Positions 3,438-41,270 of a stretch of DNA of 64,000 nt are shown piece by piece. Position numbers and translations under genes: made by a program. The notes under the pieces are model-generated. The model saw nothing but the letters and a program-made list of their open reading frames with translations. It was not told the origin of the DNA and did no database searches. The first letter of the stretch is position 1. The number at the start of each line of letters is the position of its first letter. Origin of the DNA: a bacterium (lineage in GTDB: Bacteria > Krumholzibacteriota > Krumholzibacteriia > LZORAL124-64-63); assembly GCA_031441465.1 (NCBI GenBank), contig JANOEP010000072.1:30385-94384 (forward strand), in the 5' to 3' direction.

Positions 3438-4730
3438 GTGAAGAGCCCGCAGCGTTCGCCCTGGATCTTCGTGCCCTCGCTGTATTTCGCCGAGGGCGTC
3501 CCCTACGTCCTGGTCAACACGGTCTCGGTGATCCTCTACAAGAACCTGGGCGTGGACAACGCCCGCATCGCGCTGTGGACCAGCCTGCTCTACCTGCCCT
3601 GGGTCCTGAAGATGCTCTGGGGTCCGCTGGTGGACACGCGCTCGACCAAGCGCGCCTGGATCCTCGGCACGCAGGTCGCCCAGGCGGCGTGCCTCGCGGC
3701 CGTGGCGGCGACGATCGTCGCGCCGGGCTTCTTCTTCTGGTCGTTGGCCGCCTTCACGCTGGCGGCGCTGGTTTCGGCCACCCACGACATCGCCGCCGAC
3801 GGGTTCTACCTCCACGCCCTGGACGAGCGCGCGCAGGCGTATTTCGTCGGCGTGCGCACGTTGTTCTACCGCGCGGCGATGATCTTCGGTTCGGGGCTGC
3901 TGGTGACCGTGGCCGGTCGCCTCGAGGGCGGGCCGCGCGGGGTGGCGGCCGCCTGGTCGATGGTCTTCGCGTGCGCGGCGGTCCTGTACGGGGGGATGTG
4001 GCTCTATCACCGGGCCGCCCTGCCGCGCCCGGCCACCGATGTTCTCGTCGCCGCGGGTAATCAAGGCGCCAGCAGACCGGCCGAGTCCGGCTGGTTGCGG
4101 ATCGTGGCGGCGTGGCTGCGGCAGCCCCGCGCCGGTGTGATCGTCGCCTTCATCCTGCTGTACCGCCTGGGCGAGGCCCTGCTGCTGAAGCTGGCCGCGC
4201 CCTTCCTGCTGGACGGGCGGGACGCGGGCGGCCTGGGCCTGACCACGCAGCAGGTCGGCCTCGCCTACGGCACCATCGGTCTGGGCTGCCTGATCGTGGG
4301 CGGCGTGACGGGCGGCTGGCTCATCGCGCGCTTCGGTCTGCGGCGCCTGCTGTGGCCGCTGGCCCTGGCGCTCAACGTGCCCCACGTCGCGTACCTCTAC
4401 CTGGCCTACGCGCAGCCCGGCCCGGTGGTGGCCTACCCCCTGGTCGCGCTGGAGCAGCTGGGCTACGGGCTGGGCACCACCGCGTTCATGGTCGTGCTGA
4501 TGCGCGTCTCGCGCGGGGAACACCGGACTTCCCACTTCGCGATCGCCACCGGTCTGATGGCGCTGGGCATGATGCTGCCGGGCATGGTCAGCGGGGCGAT
4601 CCAGGCGGCGGTGGGCTACCGCGCCTTCTTCCTGCTGGTGCTGCTGTGCGGAGTGCCCGGCCTGGCGCTGCTGCCGTGGCTGCCGAGGTTCGCGGAGGAG
4701 GCCGAAGGCCGGGCGTCAGGATCCGCCTGA
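3438..4730 (+). CDS. AmpG-like MFS transporter (muropeptide/signal transducer family)
   Basis: SLYFAEGVPY, LPWVLKMLWGPLVD, ATHDIAADGFY, FILLYRLGE; GTG start after GGGAGG. Confidence 0.85.
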   Translation: MKSPQRSPWIFVPSLYFAEGVPYVLVNTVSVILYKNLGVDNARIALWTSLLYLPWVLKMLWGPLVDTRSTKRAWILGTQVAQAACLAAVAATIVAPGFFFWSLAAFTLAALVSATHDIAADGFYLHALDERAQAYFVGVRTLFYRAAMIFGSGLLVTVAGRLEGGPRGVAAAWSMVFACAAVLYGGMWLYHRAALPRPATDVLVAAGNQGASRPAESGWLRIVAAWLRQPRAGVIVAFILLYRLGEALLLKLAAPFLLDGRDAGGLGLTTQQVGLAYGTIGLGCLIVGGVTGGWLIARFGLRRLLWPLALALNVPHVAYLYLAYAQPGPVVAYPLVALEQLGYGLGTTAFMVVLMRVSRGEHRTSHFAIATGLMALGMMLPGMVSGAIQAAVGYRAFFLLVLLCGVPGLALLPWLPRFAEEAEGRASGSA

Positions 4731-5972
4731 GGTTCCCAGCGCCGCGGCGACCTCGCGCGCGACCACCGCGTTGCCGGGCACGCTCCAGTGGCCGTTGTTG
4801 GGGATGTACTGGCGCAGGCCGGTCTGCTGCTGAGCCAGGCGCAGGGCGTCGAGCGGATCGACGCAGGCGATGCCGCGGGCGGCGGCGAAAGCGCGCAGCC
4901 GGTGCGTCGGCGCCGAGAAGTCGTAGGCCGCGGCCGGCAGCGGCGCCCGGCGCAGGGTCAGCTCCCGCACGACCGGGTCGACCTGGATCTCCGAGGGGGC
5001 GATCAGCAGCACGCAGCGAGCACCGGCCTGCCGGCAGGCGGCGTCGAACTCCAGCACCTGCCGCTCGGCCTGCTCCCACCAGCGGGCGACCTCGGGCGGC
5101 GTCTGCGACTGGTAGAGGGGCAGGTTGTCCACGCGTCGGCGCAGGAACTCCGCCTTCAGGGGGATGCGCAGCGCGGGATCGGCCGGGTCGCCCCACATCC
5201 CCTTGAAGACCGGCGCGCCGGGATGGGCCGCGCCTTCGGGCGCCTCCGTGGCGGCCGTCGCTTCCGGCGAGGCTTGCGCTGGGGGAGCGGCCGCCGCGCC
5301 GCCGAAGCGGACCGCGGCCCGCCAGCGGCGCAGCGAGTTGACCGCGCGGACCCCGTAGAGCTGCTCGGCCAGCACGAACAGGTGGCTCTTGCGCAGCAGG
5401 TTCAGCAGCGGCTCCCGCGAACCCGTGAAGTGCAGGTTGCCCTGGAAGACGGCGCCGGGGATGGGGATGCCCGTCACGTCGCTGTCGATGGAGAAGCAGA
5501 GCAGGGCCACGTCCGGGCGCCAGGACTCGCCCTTGCCCCGCATCAGGCCCACGGCGTTGCGCACGTCCCAGCCGGGCAGGCCGGCGATCATGGCCTCGGC
5601 AGCCGCGGTCCCGGCCGGGGGGGCCGCCCGCAGCGAATCGTCCAGCACCCGCAGGAAGTTGTGGGCGATCGGCACGTCCCCGTAGACGAACGAATCCCCG
5701 ATGCCGACCAGCCGCCACACGCCGGCCGGCTTCGGGACGGCGCGGTCGCGATCGCGGAAGCCCAGGGGGTTGACGTGGCGGTCGTCGTCCGGCGGGTAGA
5801 GGCCGGGATCGCCGGGATTCAGGACATAGCCGCAGTCGGGGTCGTTGCGGTAGGGCGTGCCGTCGGGGGGCGGGATCGTGCCCTGCAGGTAGCGCACCGC
5901 CAGCTCGCAGACCACCAGGGTGGCGAGCAGGCCCGCGAGGGAGATCATCAGGATGCGCAGGCGTCTTCTCAC
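4716..5972 (-). CDS. membrane-anchored SGNH/GDSL hydrolase-fold protein (AlgX/AlgJ-like)
   Basis: N-terminal TM, NPLGFRD, IGDSFVYG block I, C-terminal NNGHWSVPGN; Ala/Pro-rich insert. Confidence 0.75.
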   Translation of the reverse strand: MRRRLRILMISLAGLLATLVVCELAVRYLQGTIPPPDGTPYRNDPDCGYVLNPGDPGLYPPDDDRHVNPLGFRDRDRAVPKPAGVWRLVGIGDSFVYGDVPIAHNFLRVLDDSLRAAPPAGTAAAEAMIAGLPGWDVRNAVGLMRGKGESWRPDVALLCFSIDSDVTGIPIPGAVFQGNLHFTGSREPLLNLLRKSHLFVLAEQLYGVRAVNSLRRWRAAVRFGGAAAAPPAQASPEATAATEAPEGAAHPGAPVFKGMWGDPADPALRIPLKAEFLRRRVDNLPLYQSQTPPEVARWWEQAERQVLEFDAACRQAGARCVLLIAPSEIQVDPVVRELTLRRAPLPAAAYDFSAPTHRLRAFAAARGIACVDPLDALRLAQQQTGLRQYIPNNGHWSVPGNAVVAREVAAALGTSGGS

Positions 5973-6010
5973 GTCGATCCTTCGTCGGGCGGCGAATTGG
6001 AGCCGCCGCC

Positions 6011-6040
6011 AGTATAGACGCGGCCGGGTCGCGGCGTCAA
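6011..6040 (-). promoter_or_regulatory. sigma70-type promoter for the SGNH gene
   Basis: minus strand TTGACG-N18-TATACT. Confidence 0.55.
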
Positions 6041-6062
6041 AGTGCGAAAAACCCGCAAATCA

Positions 6063-6092
6063 TTGACAGGAATGGTCTCCGGGGGCTAGTTT
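6063..6092 (+). promoter_or_regulatory. sigma70-type promoter for the outer-membrane module operon
   Basis: TTGACA-N18-TAGTTT, divergent from the promoter at 6011-6040. Confidence 0.5.
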
Positions 6093-6122
6093 CGTCCGTC
6101 ACGGACCCATCGCGCACCGGCC

Positions 6123-8174
6123 GTGCCCCTCGGTCGCCGCCCAGAGGACCGCATCCCGTCATCGGGACCAGATCCCCATCTCGGGACCGCATCCCCATTT
6201 CCCGGAGGCCGCCCCTTGCCCCGCCCCGGCAGCACCGCCCGCCTCGCCCTCGTCGCCGCTCTGTGCGGCGTCCTGTGCTTCTGCTGCGCCGGGCCGGCCG
6301 GCGCCATCCCGCGCACCGAGCTGGTGGCCAACGCGGGCATCATCGGGTTGACGATCACGAATCTCGGCTACGTCGGCAACGGGCTCTCCATTCCCTACCA
6401 GCCCTCGTGCGAGTACCCGCTCAACAGCCACGTCGAGCACCTGTTCATCGGCGGCCTCTGGGTCGGCGCCATGACGCCGGAGGGGCTGCGCCGCGTGTCG
6501 ACCGGCGCCCAGGACGCTTCGAGCCTGACAAACGGCGAGGACAACCGCGAGTTCACCGACTCCATCACGCAGGACGTGCAGGTCTGGTCCAACACGCAGA
6601 ACAGCGACGACTACAACCCCGCCGCCCTGGCCACGCAGCACATCGAGTGCTACTTCCACGACGACAAGTACGACGAGACCGGCAACCACACGCCGCTGTT
6701 CGTCAAGGTCATCCTGCGCGCGCTGTCCTGGAGCAGTTCGTACGCGGACGACTTCATCGTCCTGGACTACCGCATCATCAACGATTCGGGCAGCGAGCTG
6801 CGCGACGTGTACGTCGGCTACTGGAACGACACCACCGTCGGCAACACGACGGTCACCGTGCCTTCCGGCTACGGCGGCGGCGCTGCGCGCCCCTGGCAGT
6901 TCTACGACGACATGAACGGCGGCTGGCGTCCGGGCGACGTCGCCGACGATCCCGGCCTCTGGATGATGTACGAGCACGACGATGACGGCGAAGAGGGGAT
7001 GGCCACGTCCTGGATCGGGGCGCGCCTGCTGGGCGCCGTGCCGGCCCCCACGCCGGCCTCGGGCATGCCGCCGGTGATCTACAACAGTTGGCGCTTCGGG
7101 TCAGTGCCCGACGAGGACGATACCTACATCGTCGACGGCGAGACGGAGGCGCGGCCCGGCAAGTACCAGATGCTCTCCAACGGCGATTTCGACGCCGGCG
7201 GCGACTTCTCCTACCCCGGCAACTGGAACGGCCTGCTCGCGACCGGCCCGTTCCCCAACCTCGCCCCCGGCGACACCCTGCAGGTGACCTACGCCGTGGT
7301 CTGCGGCGCCGACTCCCTGAACCTGCTGGCCAACGCCAAGGTGGCCCAGGTGGCCTACGACTCGGGCTTCGCGATCCCGACCGGCCCGCCCTCGCCGCGG
7401 CTGGGGCTGGAGTACGAGGACAACACGATCGTGCTGGCCTGGGCCCCCGGCGACTCCGTCGCCCTGGACGACCAGGGCGAGCCCGTGCCCCTGCTGTCCG
7501 ACGACCCGCGTCGCTCCCCCGAGCACCACATCAGCATCATCACCCACCGGCCCGACTTCCAGGGCTACCGGATCTTCCGCTTCCAGGGCGAGTCCTTCGG
7601 TGGCGACCCCTACGAGCAGTCGACCATGGTGGCCCAGTTCGACAAGATCGACGGCATCGGCTTCGACACCGGGCTGCCGCCGGTCGGCGCCGACGGCAAG
7701 CGGCGCTTCCGCGACACCTCGCTGCTCGACGGCTTCGGCTACTGGTACTCCGTGGTCTCCTTCTCCGCCCCGGACGTGGTCTCCAGCCTGCCGGAGTTCC
7801 AGAGCGGTTACTACGAGAACGCGACGCTGGTCTACCCCGGTCCGGCCCCCCAGCCGCTGGGCGAAGGCCGGGGCGTGGGCGTCTTCCCGAACCCGTACCG
7901 GGTCGCCTCGCGCTTCGACGACCAGCAGGGCGAGCAGGAGCTGGGCCGCAAGCTCTGGTTCACCGGTCTGCCGGCCCGCTGCGTCATCAAGGTCTTCAAC
8001 CTCAACGGCGACCTGGTCAAGACCTTGAACCACGACGACCCGGCCTCGGGCCTCGAGTCCTGGAACATCCTGAGCGAGCCGGTGCGCGCCATCGCGTCGG
8101 GCCTCTACATCTTCGCCGTGGAGGATCTCGCCACCGGCAAGGTGGAACGCGGGAAGCTGGTGATCGTGAAATGA
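6123..8174 (+). CDS. secreted protein with a T9SS type-A/FlgD-Ig-like C-terminal domain (uncharacterised FCB family)
   Basis: signal peptide ending AGA|IPR; GLTITNLGYVG...PSCEYP...EHLFIGGLWVGA N-domain; FN3-like DFQGYRIFR; CTD VFPNPY...IKVFNLNGDLVK...ASGLYIF...GKLVIVK. True start may be downstream (TTG about 6216). Confidence 0.8.
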   Translation: MPLGRRPEDRIPSSGPDPHLGTASPFPGGRPLPRPGSTARLALVAALCGVLCFCCAGPAGAIPRTELVANAGIIGLTITNLGYVGNGLSIPYQPSCEYPLNSHVEHLFIGGLWVGAMTPEGLRRVSTGAQDASSLTNGEDNREFTDSITQDVQVWSNTQNSDDYNPAALATQHIECYFHDDKYDETGNHTPLFVKVILRALSWSSSYADDFIVLDYRIINDSGSELRDVYVGYWNDTTVGNTTVTVPSGYGGGAARPWQFYDDMNGGWRPGDVADDPGLWMMYEHDDDGEEGMATSWIGARLLGAVPAPTPASGMPPVIYNSWRFGSVPDEDDTYIVDGETEARPGKYQMLSNGDFDAGGDFSYPGNWNGLLATGPFPNLAPGDTLQVTYAVVCGADSLNLLANAKVAQVAYDSGFAIPTGPPSPRLGLEYEDNTIVLAWAPGDSVALDDQGEPVPLLSDDPRRSPEHHISIITHRPDFQGYRIFRFQGESFGGDPYEQSTMVAQFDKIDGIGFDTGLPPVGADGKRRFRDTSLLDGFGYWYSVVSFSAPDVVSSLPEFQSGYYENATLVYPGPAPQPLGEGRGVGVFPNPYRVASRFDDQQGEQELGRKLWFTGLPARCVIKVFNLNGDLVKTLNHDDPASGLESWNILSEPVRAIASGLYIFAVEDLATGKVERGKLVIVK

Positions 8175-9679
8175 GACGGCCGCCGCTCGCCCCGCCGCTC
8201 GCCCCGCCGCTCGCCCTGCCGCTCGCCCTGTCGATCGCCCTGTCGATCGCCGCAGTGCTCTGCGTGCTGGCGGCCGGCTGCGGCAACGACCCCTTCGATC
8301 CCGGCTCGGTGACCAACCGGCGCCCGGTCGCGCGGATCTTCGTGACCGCCCCGGTGGGGGGCGAGTTGAATCCCACGAGCTACTTCCAGCGCACGTTCCA
8401 CTGGTCGGGCACCGACGAGGACGGCTTCGTCCGGGCCTACTACGTCTCGATCGAGACCGAGGCGGGCGCGAGCGCCCCCTGGGACACGACCGCCGCCACC
8501 GACACGACGATGACCTTCGAGACCGACGACACCGGCCGGGCGCAGGCCCTGATCCGGGTGGCCTGCCGGGACGACCGCGGCGCCTACAGCGACACGGTCA
8601 GCCAGTACATCCCGCTGCGGAATTTCCCGCCGGTGATCAACTTCGTCAGCGATTACGACACGTTCTTCTGGAGCTACGGCTCGGCGGACTTCCGCTGCTT
8701 CGCCCTGGATCTCGACGGCAACGTGACGATGGACGACTCCGTCGTCTTTCATCTGGACACGGCGGACACCACGCTGGCCCCCCTGTCCGAGGGCGAGCCG
8801 GGCGCGGACCCCGCCCTGCGCCCGGTGATCAAGCGCCTCGACGACCCCGCCCTCGGCACGTTCCAGATCGACCTGCACGGCCAGGCCCAGCCCGGCCAGC
8901 GCACGCTGACCATCCGGGTCAGCGACGAGGCCGACGCCACGACGCGCTTCGATTGGACCTGGGAGGTCCGGCCGGCGCTCAGCGACGTGCTGCTGGTCGA
9001 CGACAGCGTCGGCAACTTCGACCGCGCCTTCTACCACACGGTCATGGACTCGATCTACGGGCCGGGCGGCTGGTCCCTCTACGACATCTCCGACGGCCTG
9101 CCCGACCGGCTGTGGGTCCTGCTCGAGACCCTGCGCCAGTTCCCGGCGGTGTTCTGGTACACCGGCGCCAGCGCCTCGCCGCGCCTGGCCGCGGCGGCGG
9201 ATCTCGTCGCCCAGTACGTGCAGCCGTCCGCCGGTTACGAGCCGGGCAAGCTGCTGCTGGTCTCGCCGGCCCTGATCGGCGTGCCCGGCGCGCCGCCGCC
9301 CAGCTTCGTCACCAACACGCTGGGCTTCCGGGTCACCCCGGAGCAGTCCACGTTCTACATCCCGTCCACGAAGAAGGGGCTGCCGCTGAAGGCCGGCCTG
9401 CCGGAACTGACTTTCAACGGCAACATCTCCGCCGGGGTGGGGATGGCCGCCGCGGATTCCAGCACGACCAAGTACCTCTACCGGATGGAGTACCACCGGT
9501 ACATCAACGGCCGCCCTTCCAGCCGCCCCTTCGTGGCCGTGCGCAACCCGCCCTCGTCGTCCGGGACCTTCGCCCAGGCGGTGACCGTGACCGTGCAGCT
9601 GGACTACAGCACGCCGGGCAGCGGCCTGGCGGTCGTGCGCGCCCTGCTCTCGCAGGAGCTGGGGGTGATCCTGCCGTGA
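8171..9679 (+). CDS. lipoprotein with two Ig/PKD-like DxDG repeats and a C-terminal alpha/beta domain
   Basis: ATGA overlap with upstream stop; lipobox LAAGC; repeats FHWSGTDEDG / FRCFALDLDG; DVLLVDD...VFWYTG domain. Confidence 0.8.
   Translation: MRRPPLAPPLAPPLALPLALSIALSIAAVLCVLAAGCGNDPFDPGSVTNRRPVARIFVTAPVGGELNPTSYFQRTFHWSGTDEDGFVRAYYVSIETEAGASAPWDTTAATDTTMTFETDDTGRAQALIRVACRDDRGAYSDTVSQYIPLRNFPPVINFVSDYDTFFWSYGSADFRCFALDLDGNVTMDDSVVFHLDTADTTLAPLSEGEPGADPALRPVIKRLDDPALGTFQIDLHGQAQPGQRTLTIRVSDEADATTRFDWTWEVRPALSDVLLVDDSVGNFDRAFYHTVMDSIYGPGGWSLYDISDGLPDRLWVLLETLRQFPAVFWYTGASASPRLAAAADLVAQYVQPSAGYEPGKLLLVSPALIGVPGAPPPSFVTNTLGFRVTPEQSTFYIPSTKKGLPLKAGLPELTFNGNISAGVGMAAADSSTTKYLYRMEYHRYINGRPSSRPFVAVRNPPSSSGTFAQAVTVTVQLDYSTPGSGLAVVRALLSQELGVILP
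8180..8251 (+). repeat. 6 x 12-nt degenerate tandem repeat in the lipoprotein signal peptide
   Basis: CCGCCGCTCGCC x3, CTGCCGCTCGCC, CTGTCGATCGCC x2, encoding PPLA PPLA PPLA LPLA LSIA LSIA. Confidence 0.9.
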
Positions 9680-12570
9680 GCGTCGCCCCGGATCCCCGCC
9701 GCGCCGCGCTGGGACTGGCGCTGGTCGTCGCGATGCTCGCGGCGGCGACGCCGGTCTGCGCGCAGGCCCCGCGGGCCGCCGCCGTGGACCAGCGGCCGGC
9801 CATGATCAAGGGCTACGTCGTCGAGGCGGAGGACGGGGACCCGCTGCCCTACACGAACGTCTACATCTCGAGCTCGCGCATCGGCACCATCGCCCTGCAG
9901 GAGGGCCAGTTCTTCCTGGCCGGGCTGCGGCCGGGCACCTACACGGTGAACGCGTCCTACATCTCCTACTCGCTCGGCTCCGAGACCGTGACCGTGGGGC
10001 CGGGCGAGACGGCCGTGATCGAATTCCGCCTGACGGTCGAGGCGATCCTCAGCGAGGCCGTCGAGGTCTCGGCCGAGCGCCGGCTCATCGAGATCGAGCG
10101 CACGGGTTCCACGCACCGCCTGTCCTCGGAGCAGATGGAGGCCCTGCCGCTGGACAACCTGGTCGAGATGATCGCGCAGAAGCCGGGCGTGACGCTGCAG
10201 GACAACGAGATCCACATCCGCGGCGGCCGCTCCGACGACACGCAGTTCATCATCGACGGCGTCAGCGTCAACGACCCTCTGGCCGGCGGCGGCTACGGCT
10301 ACGCCATCGACCCCTCGATCATCAACGAGATCGAGGTGCTCACCGGCGGCTTCAACGCCGAGTACGGGCAGGCCGTCTCCGGCGTGGTCAACGTCTCCAC
10401 CAAGGAAGGCAGCGACCGCTGGAGCGGCAAGACGAGCTGGAAGCGGGACTACTGGCGGCGCGCCGAGGTGTCCGTCCAGCCCGACTGGCGGCAGCCGTAC
10501 GATCTCGACCGGCCCCAGAACATCGACGTGGTCAAGGCCTCCGTCTCGGGGCCCGACCCCTTCAGCGACGCCCTCGGCGCGCTGGGGCTGCGGCCGCCGG
10601 GCAAGACCTACCTGCTGCTCTCGGGCTCGATGGACGTGCGCGACGGTCCGCTGCCGATCTACTCCCGCACGCGGCGGCTCTCCTCGCCCATGTACGACTT
10701 CGACTGGGCCGCGCCCCGGCAGCAGAACGAGTGGAACGGCCTGGCGAAGTGGACCTGGAACGTCAACGCCAGGCACAAGCTCAACTTCACCGCCAGCCGC
10801 CAGTTCGAGATCAGCCAGGGCTTCGAACTGGCGGGGGAGGGCTACCCGCGCCCGTTCCAGGACAACCTGGACCGCTACCTCGTCTTCACCAACGAGAGCA
10901 TCCTGAGCCAGCTCTACTACCGCTGGGTGATGGGCGAGAACGACTACTTCGAACTCAACTTCGGCCGCAACTTCTCGCGCCAGCACGCGAACATCAACGG
11001 CAACGACGACTTCACGACCTACCCGCTCATCAACTCCCCGCCGTCGCCCACGGGGCTCGCCTTCGGTTCGGCCGACCGCTGGCACGACCACTTCGCCGAG
11101 TCGTGGAACCTGAAGACGACGTACGCCTGGGTGGCCAACGAGACCAACCAGTTCAAGACGGGCCTGGAGATGAACTTCACCGAGATGCAGCTGGTGGACC
11201 TGCAGTCCTCGCTGGGGTCGCCCCCGCCCGGCAAGCTGGGCATCAAGGAGGACATCTTCAAGGTGCACCCCATCGTGGGCGCCGCCTACATCCAGGACAC
11301 GGTCAACTACAAGGGCATGATCGTGAACGCGGGCCTGCGGCTGGACGCCTGGGCGCCGGGCCGCGAGGTCGAGTACGTCATGGACCACTCGGACGACTAC
11401 CTGTTCATCTTCGACGACATGGCCGACGAGTTCTACGACAACACCGTCGAGTTCTGGATGCGCAGCTGGAAGATGCGCGTCTCGCCGCGCCTGGGGGTCA
11501 GCTTCCCGGTGACGGACAAGGACAAGTTCTTCTTCAACTACGGGCACTTCTCGCAGTGGCCGCGGTACTCGTACGTCTACCCGCAGCTGCAGGCGCAGAC
11601 GGCCACCAAGATCCAGCTGCTCGGCAACCCCAATCTCGACCCCAAGATCACCGTGGAGTACGAGACCGGCGTCCAGCACGAGTTCCCCGGGCTGTGGAGC
11701 CTCGGCGTCACCTTCTTCAACCGCGACATCTACGGCTACGCCAAGTCGGTCCAGATGAAGCCGGTGAACATCGGCGCCGACGAGACCCCCGACCCGAACG
11801 ACACCGGCACGGTCACCATCGACCCCGTGCGCTATTTCAACGGCGATTCGGCGCGCAGCCTGGGCGTGGAGTTCAGCGTCATCAAGCGGACCACGCGCTG
11901 GCTGAGCGGTTCGGCGAGCCTCGAGCTGTCGCGCAGCACCGGCACCAACAGCGACGCCGACGAGGCGTACCTGCTGGCCGTCTACGACGAGGCCTACACG
12001 CCCACCGCGAGCATCGGCGGCCTGAAGCGCAACCCCCTGCTCTGGGACAAGCCCTGGAAGGTCTCCTTCAACCTCGACTTCGCCGTCGACAAGAAGGACC
12101 GCCTGCAGCTGTTCGGCTGGGACCTGCCCGCCGACTGGAGCCTCAACCTGCTCTTCCAGGCGGAGGCCGGCCAGCGCTACACGCCGCGCGGCTTCGCCGA
12201 CCCGGAGAACCCCGTGTTCGGCGAGTACGTCTACGGCGATCCCTACTCGGAGCTGGGGCCGGCGAAGCACTCGCTCAACCTGCGCTTCAACAAGACCTGG
12301 GACCTGTCGCGACGCCAGCGCCTGACGTTCTTCTTCGAGGGCCGCAACGTCCTGGACCACAAGAACTACCGGCGCATCAACCCCTGGACGGGCACGGGCT
12401 ACCAGGTCGGGGACAGCAACCCCGGCTGGGTCGACAACTACGCCGACTGGTACGGCGAGGAGGGGCCGGTCCTCAACACCTACTCCCGCGAGTACGTCAA
12501 GAGCCAGATCGACCCGAGCTACGTCGAGGATCCCCGCATGCTGCTGATGGGGGTGAGCTTCTCATGGTAG
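9676..12570 (+). CDS. TonB-dependent receptor with an N-terminal carboxypeptidase-regulatory-like domain
   Basis: GTGA overlap; signal peptide; IKGYVVEAEDGDPLPYTNV; TonB box EAVEVSA; plug HIRGGRS...IDG...GGFNAEYGQAVSGVVN; SPRLGVSFPV, GNPNL; ends in aromatic FSW. Confidence 0.92.
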   Translation: MSVAPDPRRAALGLALVVAMLAAATPVCAQAPRAAAVDQRPAMIKGYVVEAEDGDPLPYTNVYISSSRIGTIALQEGQFFLAGLRPGTYTVNASYISYSLGSETVTVGPGETAVIEFRLTVEAILSEAVEVSAERRLIEIERTGSTHRLSSEQMEALPLDNLVEMIAQKPGVTLQDNEIHIRGGRSDDTQFIIDGVSVNDPLAGGGYGYAIDPSIINEIEVLTGGFNAEYGQAVSGVVNVSTKEGSDRWSGKTSWKRDYWRRAEVSVQPDWRQPYDLDRPQNIDVVKASVSGPDPFSDALGALGLRPPGKTYLLLSGSMDVRDGPLPIYSRTRRLSSPMYDFDWAAPRQQNEWNGLAKWTWNVNARHKLNFTASRQFEISQGFELAGEGYPRPFQDNLDRYLVFTNESILSQLYYRWVMGENDYFELNFGRNFSRQHANINGNDDFTTYPLINSPPSPTGLAFGSADRWHDHFAESWNLKTTYAWVANETNQFKTGLEMNFTEMQLVDLQSSLGSPPPGKLGIKEDIFKVHPIVGAAYIQDTVNYKGMIVNAGLRLDAWAPGREVEYVMDHSDDYLFIFDDMADEFYDNTVEFWMRSWKMRVSPRLGVSFPVTDKDKFFFNYGHFSQWPRYSYVYPQLQAQTATKIQLLGNPNLDPKITVEYETGVQHEFPGLWSLGVTFFNRDIYGYAKSVQMKPVNIGADETPDPNDTGTVTIDPVRYFNGDSARSLGVEFSVIKRTTRWLSGSASLELSRSTGTNSDADEAYLLAVYDEAYTPTASIGGLKRNPLLWDKPWKVSFNLDFAVDKKDRLQLFGWDLPADWSLNLLFQAEAGQRYTPRGFADPENPVFGEYVYGDPYSELGPAKHSLNLRFNKTWDLSRRQRLTFFFEGRNVLDHKNYRRINPWTGTGYQVGDSNPGWVDNYADWYGEEGPVLNTYSREYVKSQIDPSYVEDPRMLLMGVSFSW

Positions 12571-13616
12571 ACCGCGCGACACGATCCGGACGGCGCCCGG
12601 CGGCGGCGGCGCTGCTGGCGGCGGCGCTGCTGGCGACGGTTCTCGCCGGCGCCGCGCGGGCCGGGGACGTGCTCGAACTCTACGGCGACGAGAACGTGGG
12701 CACCGCCGGCGCCCAGTTCCTGCGCCTGCCGGTCGGCGCGCGCGCGGTCGGGCTGGGCCGCGCCTACGTCGCCTGCGCCGTCGACGGTCCGGCCGCCTTC
12801 TGGAACCCCGCGGGGATCATGCGCACCCCCGGCTTGAGCAACCTGTTCTTCTCCCACGTGGCCTACGCCGCCGACATCGACCTGGAATACGCCTCCTGCC
12901 ACTGGCGCCGCCAGAACTTCGGCTTCGCCCTGTCGGGCGCGATGCTGCGTTCGGGCGAGATCCCGCGCACCGACGAGTTCCACCAGGAAGGGACCGGCCA
13001 GACCTTCACCGCCAACCAGTTCGTGCTGTCGGCGAGCGTGGCGAAGGCGATGACCGACCGCTTCTCGCTGGGCGGCACCGCGAAGCTCTACCAGGAGAAC
13101 CTGGACGAGTTCGTGGTGCGCGGCCTGCTGATGGACCTCGGCGTGCTCTACTACACGGGCCTCGGCGACATGCGCGTCGGTTTCGCCGTGCGGAACTTCG
13201 GCCCCGACCTGCGCCCGGGCGGCACGCCGCCGCCGCTGGGCCCCGGCTACGCCACGCCGCGGGACTTCCAGAGCTTCCAGGCGCCGACCTCCGGCAGCTT
13301 CGGCCTCGCCTACACCTTCCGCCTCGGGGAGCGGACGACCCTGCTGACCACGTCCGATTTCCACCACCCCACCGACGCCTCCGAGAGCTTCCGCGCCGGC
13401 GCCGAGCTGGGGCTGGCCGAGCGCCTGCTGCTGCGCGCCGGCTTCGAGACCAACCGGCTCGAGGGCGGCCTCGGCGCGGGCTTCGGCGTGAACCTGGCGC
13501 GCGACCAGTGGCGGATCCGGCTCGACTACGCGGTCAGCGACATGGGCGCCTTCGGCACGATCCACTACCTCTCGCTCGACCTGTCGCCCCTGCCCGACGG
13601 AAGGAGGCGGCGATGA
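12564..13616 (+). CDS. PorV/PorQ-family outer-membrane beta-barrel
   Basis: GTAGAQFLRLPVGARAVGLGRAY...AFWNPAG FadL/PorV-type N-terminus; amphipathic strands; LLRAG...RLDYA; start overlaps the TBDR stop. Confidence 0.85.
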   Translation: MVDRATRSGRRPAAAALLAAALLATVLAGAARAGDVLELYGDENVGTAGAQFLRLPVGARAVGLGRAYVACAVDGPAAFWNPAGIMRTPGLSNLFFSHVAYAADIDLEYASCHWRRQNFGFALSGAMLRSGEIPRTDEFHQEGTGQTFTANQFVLSASVAKAMTDRFSLGGTAKLYQENLDEFVVRGLLMDLGVLYYTGLGDMRVGFAVRNFGPDLRPGGTPPPLGPGYATPRDFQSFQAPTSGSFGLAYTFRLGERTTLLTTSDFHHPTDASESFRAGAELGLAERLLLRAGFETNRLEGGLGAGFGVNLARDQWRIRLDYAVSDMGAFGTIHYLSLDLSPLPDGRRRR

Positions 13617-14779
13617 CCCGCCCGCGTCCGGAGTGCGGCCGGTCGACGCCGCTGCTGCTGGCGGCGGCGCTCGCGGCGCTGGTCGCCGGCTGCGGCGTCA
13701 AGATCGTCGCGCCGCGGGCCGTCGGCCTGTTCTCGACCAACGCGTACACGACGGACACGCTGTTCGTCGACCCCGGCGCGCGGCAGATGGTCGCGGCCAT
13801 CGGCCGCCTCTTCGTCGTGGGCGCCGACGGCAGCCTCGTCAAGCGCACCCTCGACTACGAGGAGTTCTCGCGCATCGACGGGTTCGCCGACCCGGTCGCC
13901 GTCTGCACCGACGAGAGCGCCCGCCTGGTCTTCGTCTGGGAGGCGGGCGCGAACCGCCTCAGCGCCTTCCATACCGCCGACCTGACGCCGGCCGGATCCG
14001 CGACGCTGACGACCGTGCAGCGGGCCACCCACATCTACGCCTGCGAGACCGGGAAGGCGGAACTGGCGCCGACCGCGGCGACGTTCCTCTACCTCGCCGA
14101 CCCCGACTCCGGCGTGGTCCACCGCTTCGCCTGGTACGAGGGCGGCGACATGGCCCCGATGGGCATCCTCTGCCGCGACGAGGGCTTGTCGACGCGCTCC
14201 GTCCACGTGCCCGCGGGCATGCTGCGCGACACCGGCGGCATGCTGCTGGTCTGCGATGCCGACACCGCGCGCAACTGGGTCACCCGCTTCGACCCGACGC
14301 CGATCCTGACCGACGTCGTCGCCGCCCCCGAAGGGCCGCATCCCTGGCGGGGCCTCGCCGTCGTCTTCGCCATGGAGGGTTGCGAGCCCCAGCCCCAGTC
14401 CGCCTACACCCTCGGCGACGCGCCGCAGTGCGGCGAGGACGAGACCTGGGTCGGCGGCCGCAGCGCCGCGCCCGGAGAGTTCGACACGCCCTCGGCCCTG
14501 GCGAGCGACGGCCAGGGCCGGATCTTCGTGGCGGACACCGGCAACGACCGCGTGCAGATCTTCTCGGACCGCGGCGTCTTCGAGATGGCCTTCCGCGACA
14601 CGAGCCGGACGTCGGATCCGGTCAGCATCGGCGTGGTGGACGTGAGGATCGCCGGCGGCGGCGTCAACTACGGCGCCTACGTGTTCACGCTCTCGGGAGC
14701 GGACGGCAAGGTGCGCCGCTTCATCTCCTACGACCACTACATGTCGCTCAACGACGAGCCGCCGCCGCCGCCGAACTAG
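13613..14779 (+). CDS. NHL-repeat (beta-propeller) lipoprotein
   Basis: ATGA overlap and AGGAGG RBS; lipobox LVAGC; NHL motif GEFDTPSALASDGQGRIFVADTGNDRVQIF. Confidence 0.8.
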   Translation: MTRPRPECGRSTPLLLAAALAALVAGCGVKIVAPRAVGLFSTNAYTTDTLFVDPGARQMVAAIGRLFVVGADGSLVKRTLDYEEFSRIDGFADPVAVCTDESARLVFVWEAGANRLSAFHTADLTPAGSATLTTVQRATHIYACETGKAELAPTAATFLYLADPDSGVVHRFAWYEGGDMAPMGILCRDEGLSTRSVHVPAGMLRDTGGMLLVCDADTARNWVTRFDPTPILTDVVAAPEGPHPWRGLAVVFAMEGCEPQPQSAYTLGDAPQCGEDETWVGGRSAAPGEFDTPSALASDGQGRIFVADTGNDRVQIFSDRGVFEMAFRDTSRTSDPVSIGVVDVRIAGGGVNYGAYVFTLSGADGKVRRFISYDHYMSLNDEPPPPPN

Positions 14780-14822
14780 ACCGGCCGCGGCACGCGCCTC
14801 GGGCCCACGGAGGGAAGCACGC

Positions 14823-15512
14823 ATGCCCGGACAGCCGCCAACCGCCCACGTCCGCGACGACGTGCCGTTCTACCTCTCCATCTCGGGCAACATCGGCGTC
14901 GGCAAGTCCACCGTCTGCGCCATGATGGGCGAGGCGCTGGGCTGGCCCGCCTACTACGAGCCGGTCGCCGACAACCCCTACCTCGAGGACTACTACCGGG
15001 ACATGCCCCGCTGGGCGTTCCACCTGCAGATCTACTTCCTGAGCAAGCGGTTCGAGGTCCAGAAGGACATCATCGAGCGGGGCACCTCGGCGGTGCAGGA
15101 CCGCACCATCTACGAGGACGTCGAGATCTTCGCCCCGGTGCTGCACCGGCGCGGCGCCATGGACACCCGCGACTACGAGAACTACCGCGAGGTCTTCCAG
15201 AACATGATCTCGTTCCTGCGGCCGCCGGACCTGGTGCTCTACCTGCGCTGCTCGCCCGACGTGGCCATGGCCCGCATCGGCGACCGCGGCCGCGACTGCG
15301 AGAAGACGATCCCCCGCGACTTCATCGTCGACCTGCACGAGGCCTACGAGGATTGGGTGCCCCGCGCCCGCGGGATCTGCCCGGTGCGGGTGATCGACAC
15401 CGAGCAGGTCAACCTGCGCGACGACCAGGCGGCCCAACAGGCGCTGCTGGACGAGATCCGCGCCCTGCACGCGGCCAAGCGCGACCGCGCGAAACGGGAG
15501 GCGTCACGATGA
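14823..15512 (+). CDS. deoxynucleoside kinase
   Basis: P-loop SGNIGVGKST, EPVADNPYLEDYY, QIYFL, DRTIYED, PDLVLYL, RGR lid. Confidence 0.92.
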   Translation: MPGQPPTAHVRDDVPFYLSISGNIGVGKSTVCAMMGEALGWPAYYEPVADNPYLEDYYRDMPRWAFHLQIYFLSKRFEVQKDIIERGTSAVQDRTIYEDVEIFAPVLHRRGAMDTRDYENYREVFQNMISFLRPPDLVLYLRCSPDVAMARIGDRGRDCEKTIPRDFIVDLHEAYEDWVPRARGICPVRVIDTEQVNLRDDQAAQQALLDEIRALHAAKRDRAKREASR

Positions 15513-16606
15513 GCATCGGCCGACGAAGCGACCTGCTGCGGGGGACCCGCATCCCCGACGACGTGCTGCGCGAGCTGCCCAAGACCGACCTGCTGCGGCA
15601 CCTGGACGGCAGCCTGCGCCCCGGCACGTTCCGCGAGCTGGCCGCCGCCCGCGGCTGGGAGGTCCCGGCCGGGGACCGCGCCCTGCTCGCGCGCTACTTC
15701 CCGGTGGATCCCGAGAGCTGCCAGCAGCACTTCGTGAACTTCTTCGACCGCACGACCGAGGTGCTGCAGCGGGCCGACGACTTGGCGCGCGTCGCCCGCG
15801 AGACGGTCGAGGACGCCGCCGCCGACGGCTGCTGGTACCTGGAGGTCCGCTTCTGCCCGCTGCGCCACGTGAACGAGGGCTTGTCCCCGGACGACGTCGT
15901 GACCGCCGTGCGCCGCGGCCTGGACGAAGCGACCACCCTGACGGGCGTGCAGGCCGGGATCATCATCACCGGGATCCGCACCATCAGCCCCGACGCCTCG
16001 CTGCACCTGGCCGAGCTGGCCGTGCGCTGGAAGGGCCGCGGCGTGGTGGGGTTCGACCTGGCCGGCACGGAGCGGGACTACCCTGCCAAGGACCACCGCG
16101 AGGCGTTCTACCACATCATGAACAACAACCTCGCCGCCACCATCCACGCCGGCGAGGGCTTCGGCCCCGAGTCCATCCACCAGGCCCTGCACTACTGCGG
16201 CGCCAACCGCATCGGGCACGGCACGCGGTTGCACGAGGACCAGGATCTGTTAGCCTATGTGAACGACCTGCGGATCCCCCTGGAGCTGTGCCTGACCAGC
16301 AACGTGCTGACGGGCGTGGTCCCGTCGGTCGGGGAGCACCCGCTGCGGCGCTACCTGGAGCTGGGCCTGCGCGTGACGCTCAACACGGACAACACGCTGT
16401 TCGCGCGCACGTCGCTGCTGACGGAGCTGCGCCGCGCGGTGGACGCCTTCGACCTGAACCTGCTGGAGACCGAGACCTTGCTGCTCAACGGCTTCAAGAG
16501 CGCGTTCCTGCCGCAGGCGGTCAAGGCCGACCTGATCCGCGAAGCGGCCGGGGCCTTCCTGTCCCTGCGCGACAAGTTCGACCTCGACGCGCTGGAAATC
16601 GCATGA
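15509..16606 (+). CDS. add: adenosine deaminase (first Zn-ligand His replaced by Leu)
   Basis: PKTDLLRHLDGS, YLEVRFCP, GFDLAG, HAGE, RIGHG, ELCLTSN, LNTDN; ATGA overlap. Confidence 0.88.
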   Translation: MSIGRRSDLLRGTRIPDDVLRELPKTDLLRHLDGSLRPGTFRELAAARGWEVPAGDRALLARYFPVDPESCQQHFVNFFDRTTEVLQRADDLARVARETVEDAAADGCWYLEVRFCPLRHVNEGLSPDDVVTAVRRGLDEATTLTGVQAGIIITGIRTISPDASLHLAELAVRWKGRGVVGFDLAGTERDYPAKDHREAFYHIMNNNLAATIHAGEGFGPESIHQALHYCGANRIGHGTRLHEDQDLLAYVNDLRIPLELCLTSNVLTGVVPSVGEHPLRRYLELGLRVTLNTDNTLFARTSLLTELRRAVDAFDLNLLETETLLLNGFKSAFLPQAVKADLIREAAGAFLSLRDKFDLDALEIA

Positions 16607-17496
16607 CCGGGGATCGCTCGGGCGGGCGCGCCAGCAGGCTGAGCGACCTCTGGCGCGGGCGCGTGGAGGAGGCCGCCGCCTGGCTGCGCGGGCGCGGCTT
16701 TACCGGCGGCCAGGGTCGTACGAGAGGCATCGGCATCATCCTGGGCAGCGGCCTCGGCAACTTCGTCGACGCGGTGAGCGACCCGCGCGCGATCGACTAC
16801 GCCGGGATCCCCGGCTGGGCGACCACCACCGTGGCCGAGCACCGCGGCCGCCTGGTGGCCGGCACGGCCGGCGGCCGGGACGTGGTCGTCATGCAGGGCC
16901 GCCTGCACCCCTACGAGGGCCTGCCCTGGGACGAACTGCTGCTGCCCACGGCGGTGCTGGCCTGCCTGGACGTGGACACGGTCGTGGTGACCAACGCCGC
17001 GGGCGGACTGAACCGGTTCTATCGCCCCGGCGACCTGATGGTCATCCGCGACCAGCTCGACCTGCACCTGCAGGACCCGCTGCGCGGCCTGCTGGCCGAC
17101 CCCGTGCCGCCGGCCGCGGCGCCGGGCCGGGGCGCGCGGCCGCACGCCGTCTTCGACGAGGACCTGGCCCGCGCCCTGCTCGCGGCCGGCGCCGCCACGG
17201 GCGTGCCCCTGCACGCCGGCGTCTACGGCAGCATGTGGGGGCCCGCCTACGAGACCAAAGCCGAGATCGGGATGCTGCGCCGGGCGGGCTGCGACGCCGT
17301 GGGCATGTCGACGGCGCCGGAGACGTCCCTGCTGGCGGCTCTGGGCGTCCGCGTGGTGGGGCTGTCCTGCATCACCAACCCCGCCCAAGAGGTGGGGCAG
17401 CCGGAACTGTCGCATCAGGACGTCGTAGAAGCGGGCGCGATGGTGCGGGACCGCATGGCCCGCCTGCTGCTGGATTTCCTGCCGCGCCTGGGCTGA
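16603..17496 (+). CDS. punA: purine nucleoside phosphorylase (trimeric type)
   Basis: IILGSGLG, MQGRLHPYEG, TNAAGG, GPAYETKAE, DAVGMSTAPE, SCITN, LSHQDV. Confidence 0.92.
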   Translation: MTGDRSGGRASRLSDLWRGRVEEAAAWLRGRGFTGGQGRTRGIGIILGSGLGNFVDAVSDPRAIDYAGIPGWATTTVAEHRGRLVAGTAGGRDVVVMQGRLHPYEGLPWDELLLPTAVLACLDVDTVVVTNAAGGLNRFYRPGDLMVIRDQLDLHLQDPLRGLLADPVPPAAAPGRGARPHAVFDEDLARALLAAGAATGVPLHAGVYGSMWGPAYETKAEIGMLRRAGCDAVGMSTAPETSLLAALGVRVVGLSCITNPAQEVGQPELSHQDVVEAGAMVRDRMARLLLDFLPRLG

Positions 17497-17528
17497 CCCC
17501 GGGCGTTTTCTCAAGGGAGTGAGCGCAC

Positions 17529-18200
17529 ATGTTCGACATCACGTTCGCGCTGCTGATCCCGGTGTTCATCTTCGCCCTCTGGGCGCAGCACCGTGTCAAG
17601 ACCACCTACGCCAAGTACCTGCTGGTGCCCGCCGCCCGCGGCCTGACCGGCAGCGAGGCCGCCCGCCGCCTGCTGGACGCCGCCGGGCTCTCGGCGGTGG
17701 GCATCGAGCGCATCGGCGGCGACCTGACCGACCACTACGACCCGCGCAAGCGCGTGCTGCGCTTGAGCGAGGCCAACCACGAGGGCCGCAGCATCGCCGC
17801 GTTGGGCGTCTCCTGCCACGAGGCGGGCCACGCCGTGCAGCACGCCCGCGGCTACGCGGCGCTGCAGGTCCGACAGGCCATCTGGCCGGTGGCCGGCTTC
17901 GGCAGCACCCTGGCCATGCCCCTGTTCTTCATCGGATTCCTGTTCCACTTCCCGATGCTGATGGACGTGGGTATCCTGATCTACGCCGTGGCGGCGGTGT
18001 TCACGCTGGTGACCCTGCCGGTGGAGTTCGACGCCAGCAACCGCGCCGTGCAGTTGCTGACGACCCATGGCATCGTCTCGACGCAGGAGCGCGGGCAGGT
18101 GCGCGCGGTGCTCAACGCCGCCGCGCTGACCTACGTCGCGGCGGCCCTGATGGCCGTGGTCCAGCTCGTGCGGTTGCTGCTGCTGCGCGGACGTCGCTGA
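17529..18200 (+). CDS. putative neutral zinc metallopeptidase (YugP-like membrane protein)
   Basis: LTDHYDP, HEAGHAVQH, TLPVEFDASNRA, VLNAAALTYVA. Confidence 0.9.
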   Translation: MFDITFALLIPVFIFALWAQHRVKTTYAKYLLVPAARGLTGSEAARRLLDAAGLSAVGIERIGGDLTDHYDPRKRVLRLSEANHEGRSIAALGVSCHEAGHAVQHARGYAALQVRQAIWPVAGFGSTLAMPLFFIGFLFHFPMLMDVGILIYAVAAVFTLVTLPVEFDASNRAVQLLTTHGIVSTQERGQVRAVLNAAALTYVAAALMAVVQLVRLLLLRGRR

Positions 18201-18252
18201 CCGTTCGTCGATCCCGACCCCGAACCCGGCTCGGCCGGACCTGGAGGACCGC

Positions 18253-19011
18253 ATGCGCCGCAAGCTCGTCGCCGGAAACTGGAAGATGAACCTCGGACCC
18301 GCCGCCGCGACCAAACTGGCGCGCCAGGTGGCCCTCGGCGTGCCGGGTCTCGACGGGCCGCCCGAAGTGCTGGTCTGCCCGCCCTTCGTCTCGATCCCCG
18401 CCGTGGCCGCCGTCCTGAAGGACAGCGCCGTGCTGCTCGGCGCCCAGAACTGCGCTGGCGAGGACGCGGGCGCCCACACCGGCGAGGTCGCGGCGCCCAT
18501 GCTGAGCGAGGTCGGGGCGACCCACGTCATCGTCGCCCACTCGGAGCGGCGGACCCACCAGCGCGAGACCGACGACGAATTCGTGCGCAAGATCGACCGC
18601 GCCCACGCGGCCGGCCTCACCGCCATCTTCTGCTACGGCGAACGCATCGAGGAACGGCGGGCCGGCCGCGAGCGCGACGTGGTCCGCGCCCAGCTCGCCG
18701 GCGTGCTGCCGCGCCTCGCCGCACCCACGCCCGCGAACCTGGTGCTGGCCTACGAACCGGTCTGGGCCATCGGCACCGGCGAGACGGCGACCCCGGAGCA
18801 GGCCCAGGAGATCCACGCCTTCTCGCGCGGGATCGTGGGCGAGCTGCTCGGCAACGACGCGGCCGCCCGGATGCGCATCCTCTACGGCGGCAGCATGAAG
18901 CCCGACAACGCGGCGGAACTGATGCGCCAGCCGGACATCGACGGCGGCTTGATCGGCGGCGCCAGCCTGAAGGCCGACGATTTTCTGGCGATCGTGCGCG
19001 GCGCCCTCTGA
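18253..19011 (+). CDS. tpiA: triosephosphate isomerase
   Basis: AGNWKMN, HSERR, AYEPVWAIGTG, LYGGS, DGGLIGGASL. Confidence 0.97.
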   Translation: MRRKLVAGNWKMNLGPAAATKLARQVALGVPGLDGPPEVLVCPPFVSIPAVAAVLKDSAVLLGAQNCAGEDAGAHTGEVAAPMLSEVGATHVIVAHSERRTHQRETDDEFVRKIDRAHAAGLTAIFCYGERIEERRAGRERDVVRAQLAGVLPRLAAPTPANLVLAYEPVWAIGTGETATPEQAQEIHAFSRGIVGELLGNDAAARMRILYGGSMKPDNAAELMRQPDIDGGLIGGASLKADDFLAIVRGAL

Positions 19012-34063: not shown

Positions 34064-34200
34064 CGGGGCCTCCAGCCTCGTGAGGGTCGCGAGAGCCAAG
34101 GATTGAGTGTGGCGGGTACTCGATTCTAGCATGTCCGGCAGATTGATGCCAGAACTCGGTTTTTGTCGTTCAGAGGGGTTGTGGATTCGCGTCCTGATAG

Positions 34201-41267: not shown

Positions 41268-41270
41268 GGT
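41231..41270 (-). repeat. about 2.7 x 15-nt tandem repeat containing an SD and an ATG
   Basis: minus strand ACCATGAGGAGACCG-ACCATGAGGAGACAG-ACCATGAGAC, encoding MRRPT MRRQT MRH. Confidence 0.85.

Follow-up and report, generated by a model that had tools for sequence, protein, structure and literature searches.

In a window of 64,000 nucleotides from the Krumholzibacteriota assembly GCA_031441465.1 (contig JANOEP010000072.1, positions 30,385 to 94,384 of the forward strand), five genes, here called g1 to g5, encode a secreted protein whose tail resembles a type IX secretion system (T9SS) C-terminal domain (CTD), two lipoproteins, a TonB-dependent receptor (TBDR) and an outer-membrane barrel of the PorV/PorQ family. 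The gene arrangement is real and strongly non-random. With a chance that we put at about even, g1-g5 constitute one outer-membrane uptake module around the TonB-dependent transporter (TBDT) g3, in which the capture protein is placed independently of SusD. According to this model, g1 would be exported by Sec and would then cross the outer membrane through the type IX translocon by virtue of its CTD. The CTD would be retained, and its predicted docking site is the extracellular face of g4, a dedicated barrel of PorQ/PorV type, by analogy with the docking of PorZ on PorQ. The invariant adjacency of g3 and g4 and their translational coupling suggest that g4 is placed beside g3. The beta-supersandwich of g1 would bind the substrate and pass it to g3, g2 (two Ig-like domains and a GATase1-like domain) and g5 (an NHL propeller) might be additional binders or form a lid, as the analogy with SusD and BtuG suggests, and import would be energised by TonB. 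Assembly with g3, retention of the CTD, function and substrate are what we infer. The genes and their junctions are:

g1, 6216..8174, + strand: secreted protein of 652 aa, outside Pfam and NCBIfam families, with a CTD-like tail
g1/g2 junction, 8171-8174, + strand: ATGA overlap
g2, 8171..9679, + strand: lipoprotein of 502 aa with two Ig/FN3-like domains and a GATase1/ThuA-like domain
g2/g3 junction, 9676-9679, + strand: GTGA overlap
g3, 9676..12570, + strand: TBDR of 964 aa with a CarboxypepD_reg-like N-domain, plug and barrel
g3/g4 junction, 12564-12570, + strand: ATGGTAG overlap
g4, 12564..13616, + strand: PorV/PorQ-family (FadL-like) outer-membrane barrel of 350 aa, paralog of the PorU-adjacent PorV
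g4/g5 junction, 13613-13616, + strand: ATGA overlap
g5, 13613..14779, + strand: lipoprotein of 388 aa with NHL repeats

The cluster occupies 6216-14779 and all neighbours are joined by overlapping stop and start codons, as read directly in the sequence; the five coupled genes of the original prediction, with all their open reading frames (ORFs) and four overlaps, are thereby confirmed. The five ORFs display the codon-position GC pattern typical of real genes, with a GC content at third codon positions (GC3) of 0.95-0.98 in a window of about 70% GC. Family models score above their cut-offs for the TBDR, the PorV-family barrel and the NHL lipoprotein, in agreement with the identities first given to them. 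A one-genome-per-species scan returned 164 relatives of g1, and 80 of the loci were retained. The order g1-g2-g3-g4-g5 is colinear in 54 of the 59 Krumholzibacteriota loci that have at least 8.7 kb past the g1 start, and the overlapping start codons recur among orthologs. Because order and coupling recur in these 54 loci, the five-gene arrangement goes beyond chance, and a fortuitous adjacency of five genes is ruled out by the synteny counts.

The linkage extends to distant relatives. A metagenome scan with ten distant members gave 415 relatives (80 loci kept, GC 34-62%), and in 25 of the 26 loci with at least 9 kb past the g1-like gene a TBDR and a PorV-like gene follow on the same strand; the twenty-sixth contains the TBDR alone because the locus ends. 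A g2-like gene is found in 18 of these 26 loci and an NHL protein after the PorV-like gene in 8 of the 8 distant loci tested. One distant locus belongs, by the names of its homologs (69-81% identity), to Fidelibacterota/Marinimicrobia. Counting also two paralogous modules in the same genome, the gene linkage is conserved well outside the window. In L125, L131, L136, L141, L143, L147, L148, L152, L164 and L182, two tandem PorV-like genes were observed upstream of the g1-like gene, at a distance of about 4.5 kb; these loci carry an EEP-type nuclease downstream of the PorV pair, and in each of them the PorV-like barrels number up to three and the CTD proteins three or more.

In the case of g1, translation had been placed at GTG 6123, the start of the longest ORF. 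A GGAGG sequence lies 7 nt 5' of TTG 6216, the signal peptide begins there, and orthologs measure 640-670 aa compared with 652 aa from this codon; because the Shine-Dalgarno sequence, the signal peptide and the ortholog lengths fit, TTG 6216 is the likelier start. At the sequence level, g1 had no significant match in Pfam, NCBIfam or the PDB. Its predicted model (predicted local distance difference test, pLDDT, 81.6; predicted template modelling score, pTM, 0.79) comprises a signal peptide, a beta-supersandwich at about 28-395 (to 467 in some alignments), an FN3-like domain at about 397-545 and the CTD-like tail at about 550-652. The beta-supersandwich emerged when the N-terminal domain was searched with Foldseek, as had been suggested. 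This predicted fold matches dextran dextrinase 9ju0 (VIA Z 19.9, root-mean-square deviation (rmsd) 3.2, 256 aligned residues) and also, by Foldseek and VIA, glycoside hydrolase (GH) family GH116, the GH15 glucoamylase 1lf6 (Z 18.8) and the GH94/GH65 phosphorylases. The matches are restricted to non-catalytic N-domains of these enzymes, for instance residues 35-283 of 1lf6 and 18-301 of 1ulv. No (alpha/alpha)6 or other catalytic domain is present in g1, where the FN3-like domain and the CTD come after the N-domain instead. Because a catalytic domain is missing, we read g1 as a binding module: in its predicted structure it looks like a beta-supersandwich binding module and not an enzyme. Of the two roles first considered for it, a substrate-capturing lid or an enzyme, the enzyme falls away and the binding module is retained. 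In a profile search, the g1 family comprises 8610 representative clusters at E <= 0.001, of which 467 remain at E <= 1e-30. A search of the ESM Atlas returned unnamed clusters, most commonly from Bacteroidota, Zixibacteria and Fidelibacterota, which we take as leads only.

The g1 tail is modelled as a seven-strand sandwich (nt 7863-8171) with strands at residues 555-557, 579-583, 588-595, 600-607, 614-617, 629-637 and 643-651 and a pLDDT mostly of 50-86. Its best NCBIfam match is the C-terminus of PorZ (E 0.003), and the same holds for the CTD of the paralog on contig C47 (E 1.8e-4). In this respect, g4 gives a parallel picture. It matches the PorV/PorQ family model NF033709 with 157.7 bits (cut-off 90); at the equivalog level the best score is for PorQ (NF033711, 87.1 against 220, far below the cut-off), followed by PorV (NF033710, 38.4 against 250). 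Its sole sequence relative in the PDB is PorV of F. johnsoniae (6h3i_F, E 4.4e-9).

The assembly (3.49 Mb, 96.8% complete, with homologs named Krumholzibacteria) contains 13 PorV-family matches, 8 of them over the cut-off. A PorU-like gene (403 bits, cut-off 420) lies directly 5' of the PorV paralog on C10. Because the PorU-like gene adjoins the C10 paralog instead, g4 is not the canonical PorV; with eight paralogs and the PorU-like gene beside the C10 copy, neither is it the sole PorV of a canonical T9SS. A CTD-ending product is encoded directly 5' of the PorV paralogs on C10 (the PorU-like protein) and C49 (FlgD_ig, 34 bits). On C9 the upstream product carries FlgD_ig at 22-26 bits, below the cut-off, on C54 and C47 the tails of the upstream products are homologous to that of g1, and on C29 the upstream product is CTD-like by eye only; no CTD-encoding gene was found directly upstream of the C31 paralog. 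Two of these neighbourhoods are paralogous modules: the one on C54 encodes a TBDR, a g1-like protein, a PorV-like barrel, a GWxTD protein and ExbB, and the one on C47 a TBDR, a g1-like protein, a PorV-like barrel and a glycoamylase-family protein (PF10091) with a Por_Secre_tail. As to the secretion system itself, the components looked for were found in part: the PorU-like gene and an SprA_N match (43.5 bits against 27) in an open frame of 2267 aa are present, GldK (TIGR03525) gave only generic sulfatase-modifying-domain matches, and GldM is treated below. FlgD_ig has 114 matches in the genome, 110 of them over the cut-off. The 444-aa PorV paralog at G000:C49:42157-43491 (L101:5158-6489) has an FlgD_ig-like domain of its own (residues 334-398) and is flanked by a giant FlgD_ig protein on one side and a large TPR protein on the other.

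The interface between PorV and the CTD, whose prediction had been called for, was obtained with alignments made in this analysis. For g4 (33-350) and the g1 tail (545-652), the interaction score ipSAE had a median of 0.86 over three runs, the best of 3 controls reaching 0.00; the mark used is attained by 116 of 157 solved complexes, compared with 2 of 215 mismatched pairs. At least 81% of contacts are common to the runs, and the pLDDT of the partner is at least 73. Invariant columns are enriched in the predicted interface on both sides, with 18/58 versus 40/260 in g4 (p 0.006) and 14/41 versus 12/67 in the CTD (p 0.047). These data bear on another explanation, in which the genes are co-expressed and g4 does not hold g1, with g4 as a general shuttle or a channel of the FadL type and g1 as ordinary cargo whose CTD PorU cleaves. 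PorV is indeed a FadL homolog, the C54 paralog has a weak Toluene_X match (E 9e-5), the g1 CTD is weakly similar to type A tails, and an ordinary FlgD_ig or Por_Secre_tail occupies the position of the g1 tail in 3 of the 26 distant family members scanned. However, the predicted interface involves invariant residues of both partners, a CTD gene stands repeatedly directly 5' of PorV-family paralogs in this genome, and g1-type CTDs are unusually conserved and distinct from the 114 cargo-type FlgD_ig tails. We regard this explanation as improbable.

Docking of g1 on a private barrel beside g3 has to be weighed against several observations. The g1 tail scores below the CTD cut-offs (Por_Secre_tail PF18962, 15.9 bits against 27, E 0.016; TIGR04183, 16.2 against 23) and is not among the 114 FlgD_ig matches of the genome; of the type-A-like T9SS CTD originally assigned to g1, the seven-strand Ig-like sandwich stands and a match above cut-off to PF18962 or TIGR04183 does not. 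GldM models (TIGR03517, PF12081) had no match in the genome, but they exceeded their cut-off in none of the control genomes either, so that the missing match does not show the motor to be absent. The remaining 5 of the 59 loci hold a g1 homolog of about 41% identity and no TBDR or PorV-like gene within 10 kb. The complex may pass because of its likeness to solved structures, since solved PorV-containing complexes exist, and the prediction covers g4 alone, so that it does not discriminate between this barrel and the remaining seven paralogs. Among 7 PorV/CTD pairs, {C72, C54, C47} and {C9, C49} group in both similarity matrices, which are weakly congruent (exact Mantel test, 346 of 5040 permutations, not significant); the co-phylogeny that had been expected of PorV paralogs and their adjacent CTD proteins thus amounts to suggestive clusters. 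Finally, gene order alone points to a contact between g4 and g3. Taken as a whole, the original interpretation that a private PorV tethers its cognate CTD protein is partly supported, namely by linkage, paralogs and the predicted interface; none of the three outcomes that had been named as speaking against it was observed. In loci L079, L081 and L085-L088, neither a TBDR nor a PorV-like gene was seen next to the g1 homolog (about 41% identity); L081, L085, L086 and L088 have OB-unit ORFs at a distance of 4-6 kb upstream.

At the centre of the cluster, g3 contains CarbopepD_reg_2 (51.0 bits, above cut-off), Plug PF07715 (55.2 bits against 23.9, residues 143-237) and the barrel PF14905 OMP_b-brl_3 (47.5 bits against 27); its paralogs match PF00593, and the genome has 9 Plug-bearing receptors. 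Ahead of the plug lies the segment AVEVSA, which we take to resemble a TonB box. The absence of a SusD-like gene, noted from the start, applies to the whole genome, where SusD_RagB PF07980 has no match at E <= 0.01 (the B. thetaiotaomicron control was positive). The predicted folds of g1 and g2 are not SusD-like, and g3 fails the SusC/RagA model TIGR04056, which aligns only to its N-terminal 204 residues and scores 47.2 bits, below the cut-off of 368.25.

Of the two lipoproteins, g2 has the lipobox LAAG|C, with Cys37 invariant across 44 orthologs, and no match in Pfam or NCBIfam. Its model (pLDDT 85.8) consists of two Ig/FN3-like sandwiches at about 50-266 and a GATase1/ThuA-like alpha/beta domain at 270-502, the latter resembling 3rht (VIA Z 13.8, rmsd 3.1, 195 aligned residues) and the ThuA-like 4jqs (Z 13.6). 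Within residues 270-502, a test for a catalytic triad failed, as no invariant or nearly invariant Cys or His was found among the 44 orthologs; because conserved Cys and His are lacking, this domain is not an amidotransferase. g2 had been described as a lipoprotein with DxDG repeats: the lipoprotein holds, and of the repeat there remain just two motifs, one per Ig-like domain (DEDG at 82, DLDG at 180). g5 has the lipobox LVAG|C, matches the NHL repeat PF01436 (30.9 bits, cut-off 20) and aligns in 4 stretches with the NHL propellers of TRIM71 in the PDB (E 2e-26); judged by its sequence it is probably a beta-propeller.

Could the cluster be part of the secretion machinery and not an importer? 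As an accessory of the T9SS or of cell-surface biogenesis, g3 would be PorF-like, g4 a PorQ-like anchor and g1 PorZ-like. This agrees with PorQ as the best equivalog of g4 and PorZ as the best match of the g1 CTD, with a median identity of 58-66% for g1, g3 and g4, about equal to that of neighbouring enzymes, and with two precedents in the accessible text of the sources: the TBDR-like barrel PorF (PG0534) is listed as essential for the T9SS of P. gingivalis (PMC5445135), and the FadL-like BamG holds a surface lipoprotein in the BAM complex of Bacteroidota (PMC12578637). Phylogenetic distribution argues otherwise. Among 200 further genomes of the phylum, families f1 and f6 are those with full-length g1 orthologs. 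Orthologs of g2 were found in 75 of the 86 genomes of f1 and in all 9 of f6; there were none in f2, f7 or f8, families that retain g1-like paralogs. The 11 f1 genomes lacking g2 fall among the 12 with weak g1 hits only (in the twelfth, g2 is cut at a contig edge), and some of the 11 are 93-97% complete. Related genomes are not independent; losses are seen within the genera labelled g12 and g18 and between genera. The gene set is thus lost as a unit and, unlike a core component, is not core machinery. Moreover, one genome holds three paralogous modules plus a separate PorU-PorV pair, the g3 plug domain is regular, and nucleases and DNA-binding proteins occur in related loci. We consider an accessory role in secretion to be quite improbable. 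In G198:C19 and G200:C14, g1 and g2 orthologs were observed in pieces with in-frame TGA stops, as decaying copies or assembly frameshifts.

What might the module import? The original prediction named no substrate. For this window, extracellular nucleic acid fragments are the most likely substrate class, although we hold this with somewhat less than even confidence. One clue lies downstream of g5:

Deoxynucleoside kinase (dNK), 14823-15512, + strand: 43 nt after g5, with no terminator-like site between
Adenosine deaminase (ADA), 15509-16606, + strand: overlaps dNK and PNP
Purine nucleoside phosphorylase (PNP), 16603-17496, + strand: overlaps ADA

These three genes are possibly on the same transcript as g1-g5 and accompany the cluster only in the Krumholzibacteriota lineage. 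dNK is found downstream in 37 of the 42 related loci with room, and insertions between g5 and dNK include RpiB and ADP-ribosylglycohydrolase. Other clues come from distant loci. In 50 of them (54 have more than 2.5 kb of room) the ORF directly after the g1-like gene contains ExeM/NucH-type OB units and a type A CTD; 9 of 9 such ORFs tested match positions 1-136 of NF033681 and pass TIGR04183. Directly upstream of the g1-like gene, a CTD-bearing nuclease is encoded in 17 of the 48 distant loci with room (EEP-type in 16, Endonuclease I in 1), LTD is also present in the two upstream nucleases scanned, and DUF5689 occurs in two inserted CTD proteins of distant loci. Elsewhere in the genome studied here, C49 carries OB-unit ORFs and C73 an Endonuclease I-like stretch, an FlgD_ig match following one of the C49 ORFs and the C73 stretch.

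Against a nucleic acid substrate stand several facts. In the 80 distant loci dNK and PNP were found 0 times and ADA once, and because they are missing there, the adjacency of the cluster to dNK and PNP may be lineage-specific synteny. Nuclease, OB-fold and DUF5689 genes are all missing from the cluster in the window, and DUF5689 had no match anywhere in the genome. In addition, the domains of g1 and g2 resemble accessory domains of glycoside hydrolases and phosphorylases, and the C47 module holds a glycoside-hydrolase-like gene. These last points favour the main alternative, that the same architecture takes up a glycan or glycoconjugate and is a true analog of a polysaccharide utilization locus (PUL), with g1 replacing SusD or a surface glycan-binding protein (SGBP). 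Support for it comes from the likeness of the g1 N-domain to those of 9ju0, GH116, 1lf6 and GH94/GH65, of the g2 C-domain to GATase1-like domains also found in GH42 enzymes, Agd3 and PelA, from the CTD-bearing PF10091 protein at the end of the C47 module, and from some of the CTD proteins inserted in distant loci, which match CBM_56 (in one case over cut-off). Nevertheless, a common fold is no proof of function, no glycoside hydrolase lies within or adjoins the cluster in the 54 colinear loci, and the flanks of orthologous and distant loci carry instead nucleoside-salvage genes, nucleases and OB-fold or DUF5689 proteins. A glycan substrate, for this window and for the architecture as such, seems to us unlikely.

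How does the cluster compare with known systems? The comparisons that follow reflect the accessible text of the sources cited. A known analog of the proposed anchoring of g1 is the PorQ-PorZ/PorV-PorU attachment complex: in the T9SS of P. gingivalis, PorQ holds PorZ and PorV holds PorU, and both of the proteins so held retain their CTDs (PMC10947112). The private-anchor idea thus has a precedent, one that the original prediction did not name. Both cases join a PorV-family barrel to a surface protein that keeps its CTD (here predicted), and PorQ and PorZ give the best scores. The equivalog scores, however, are far below cut-off (87 against 220 for PorQ, 16 against 260 for PorZ), and instead of a sortase or a carrier of anionic lipopolysaccharide (A-LPS), the partner in the present case is a beta-supersandwich protein whose gene accompanies that of a TBDR. 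PorP/SprF-like barrels are likewise dedicated barrels whose genes adjoin that of a cognate type B CTD cargo and serve surface anchorage (Gorasia et al. 2022 IJMS, cited in PMC10947112), although there the barrel family is PorP, the CTD is of type B and no TBDR is involved. BamG-BamH also resembles the proposed assembly, in that a FadL-family 14-strand barrel acts as a scaffold, binds a surface protein via extracellular loops and stands beside another barrel (PMC12578637); by contrast, its client is BamA and not a TBDT, its partner is a lipoprotein and not a CTD protein, and the BamG family is Toluene_X and not PorV.

With the SusCD/RagAB and BtuBG "pedal-bin" transporters, the cluster shares a TBDT with surface partners, and BtuG is a beta-propeller lid, as g5 might be (PMC10404256). 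The differences are that SusD was not found in the genome and that g3 fails the SusC/RagA model (47 bits against 368). g5, known from sequence alone, has NHL repeats and not the seven-bladed BtuG fold, and the PorV-like barrel with its CTD partner has no counterpart in these transporters. In the literature searched, with subscription journals and supplements outside its scope, no description was found of a TBDR encoded together with a PorV paralog and a CTD protein.

For DNA, the parallel is the genetically validated ddbABCDEF DNA-utilization locus of Bacteroides, where the DUF5689 protein DdbD is the proposed binding partner of the TBDT DdbC (bioRxiv 10.1101/2025.03.18.642099). Like this locus and the TBDT pair of Riemerella anatipestifer natural transformation, the clusters described here are PUL-like without SusD and combine a TBDT with secreted nucleases and non-catalytic surface proteins, and DUF5689, as in DdbD, is found in the CTD proteins of two distant relatives. 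In ddb, however, the surface parts are lipoproteins (processed by signal peptidase II, SPII), whereas here nucleases, OB-fold proteins and g1 bear T9SS CTDs; a PorV/PorQ-like barrel is always present here, and the cluster of the window has no nuclease or DUF5689 gene. It is conceivable, albeit rather doubtful, that the cluster is the Krumholzibacteriota form of a widespread machine for the capture and import of extracellular DNA in Fibrobacteres-Chlorobi-Bacteroidetes (FCB) lineages other than Bacteroidota, with all surface parts delivered by the T9SS (a nuclease, an OB-fold DNA binder and a beta-supersandwich protein), at least one of which would be held on a dedicated PorQ-like barrel beside a TBDT.

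As to transcription, scans of 5800-18300 gave no promoter-like site on the + strand and a single terminator-like site, within g2. By eye only, TTGACA can be seen at 6063-6068 with TAGTTT 18 nt further on. A riboswitch that might name the substrate was sought with Rfam in 5700-6500, where nothing matched at E <= 1. In two metatranscriptome studies, contigs of relatives (85-99% alike) together span 30 of 30 bins of 6000-17600, and one RNA-library contig of 1465 nt spans the g3/g4 and g4/g5 junctions; such contigs prove neither transcription nor a single transcript, and none of them was used as evidence.

Other observations concern the remainder of the window. Its start (3-1874, + strand) encodes a MotA_N/MotA_ExbB protein and a MotB_plug/OmpA protein, separated from the cluster by two transporters and a divergent familyless gene of 418 aa (4716-5972, - strand), which adjoins g1 only in the closest relatives. 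An M14 carboxypeptidase (31448-34132, - strand) combines an InhA-like MAM domain with an FlgD_ig tail (54 bits), the best FlgD_ig match of the assembly, and is a typical T9SS-type cargo. In this bacterial genome, the segment 41267-45748 (- strand) encodes two subunits of topoisomerase VI, A at 41267-42505 and B at 44063-45748, and a gene for an M32 carboxypeptidase lies between them. Between 46000 and 62000, GC drops from about 0.70 to 0.59-0.64 and few ORFs pass a high-GC3 gene filter; this part may be foreign or differently composed DNA.

If the proposed module is correct, T9SS cargo docked on private PorV/PorQ-like barrels would be a second route, besides surface lipoproteins, for giving TBDTs their capture subunits, and private anchors would explain the abundance of PorV paralogs in FCB genomes outside Bacteroidota. 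The g1 family is large and without a Pfam model, and its neighbour genes now suggest a testable role for it. Should the substrate be nucleic acid, the module would be a marker for DNA scavenging in Krumholzibacteriota and Fidelibacterota (Marinimicrobia) and a natural comparison for Bacteroides ddb. As a DNA machine, it would be the counterpart of the lipoprotein-based Ddb system of Bacteroides and of the Riemerella transformation system, would feed nucleoside salvage through dNK, ADA and PNP, and could even serve the uptake of DNA for transformation.

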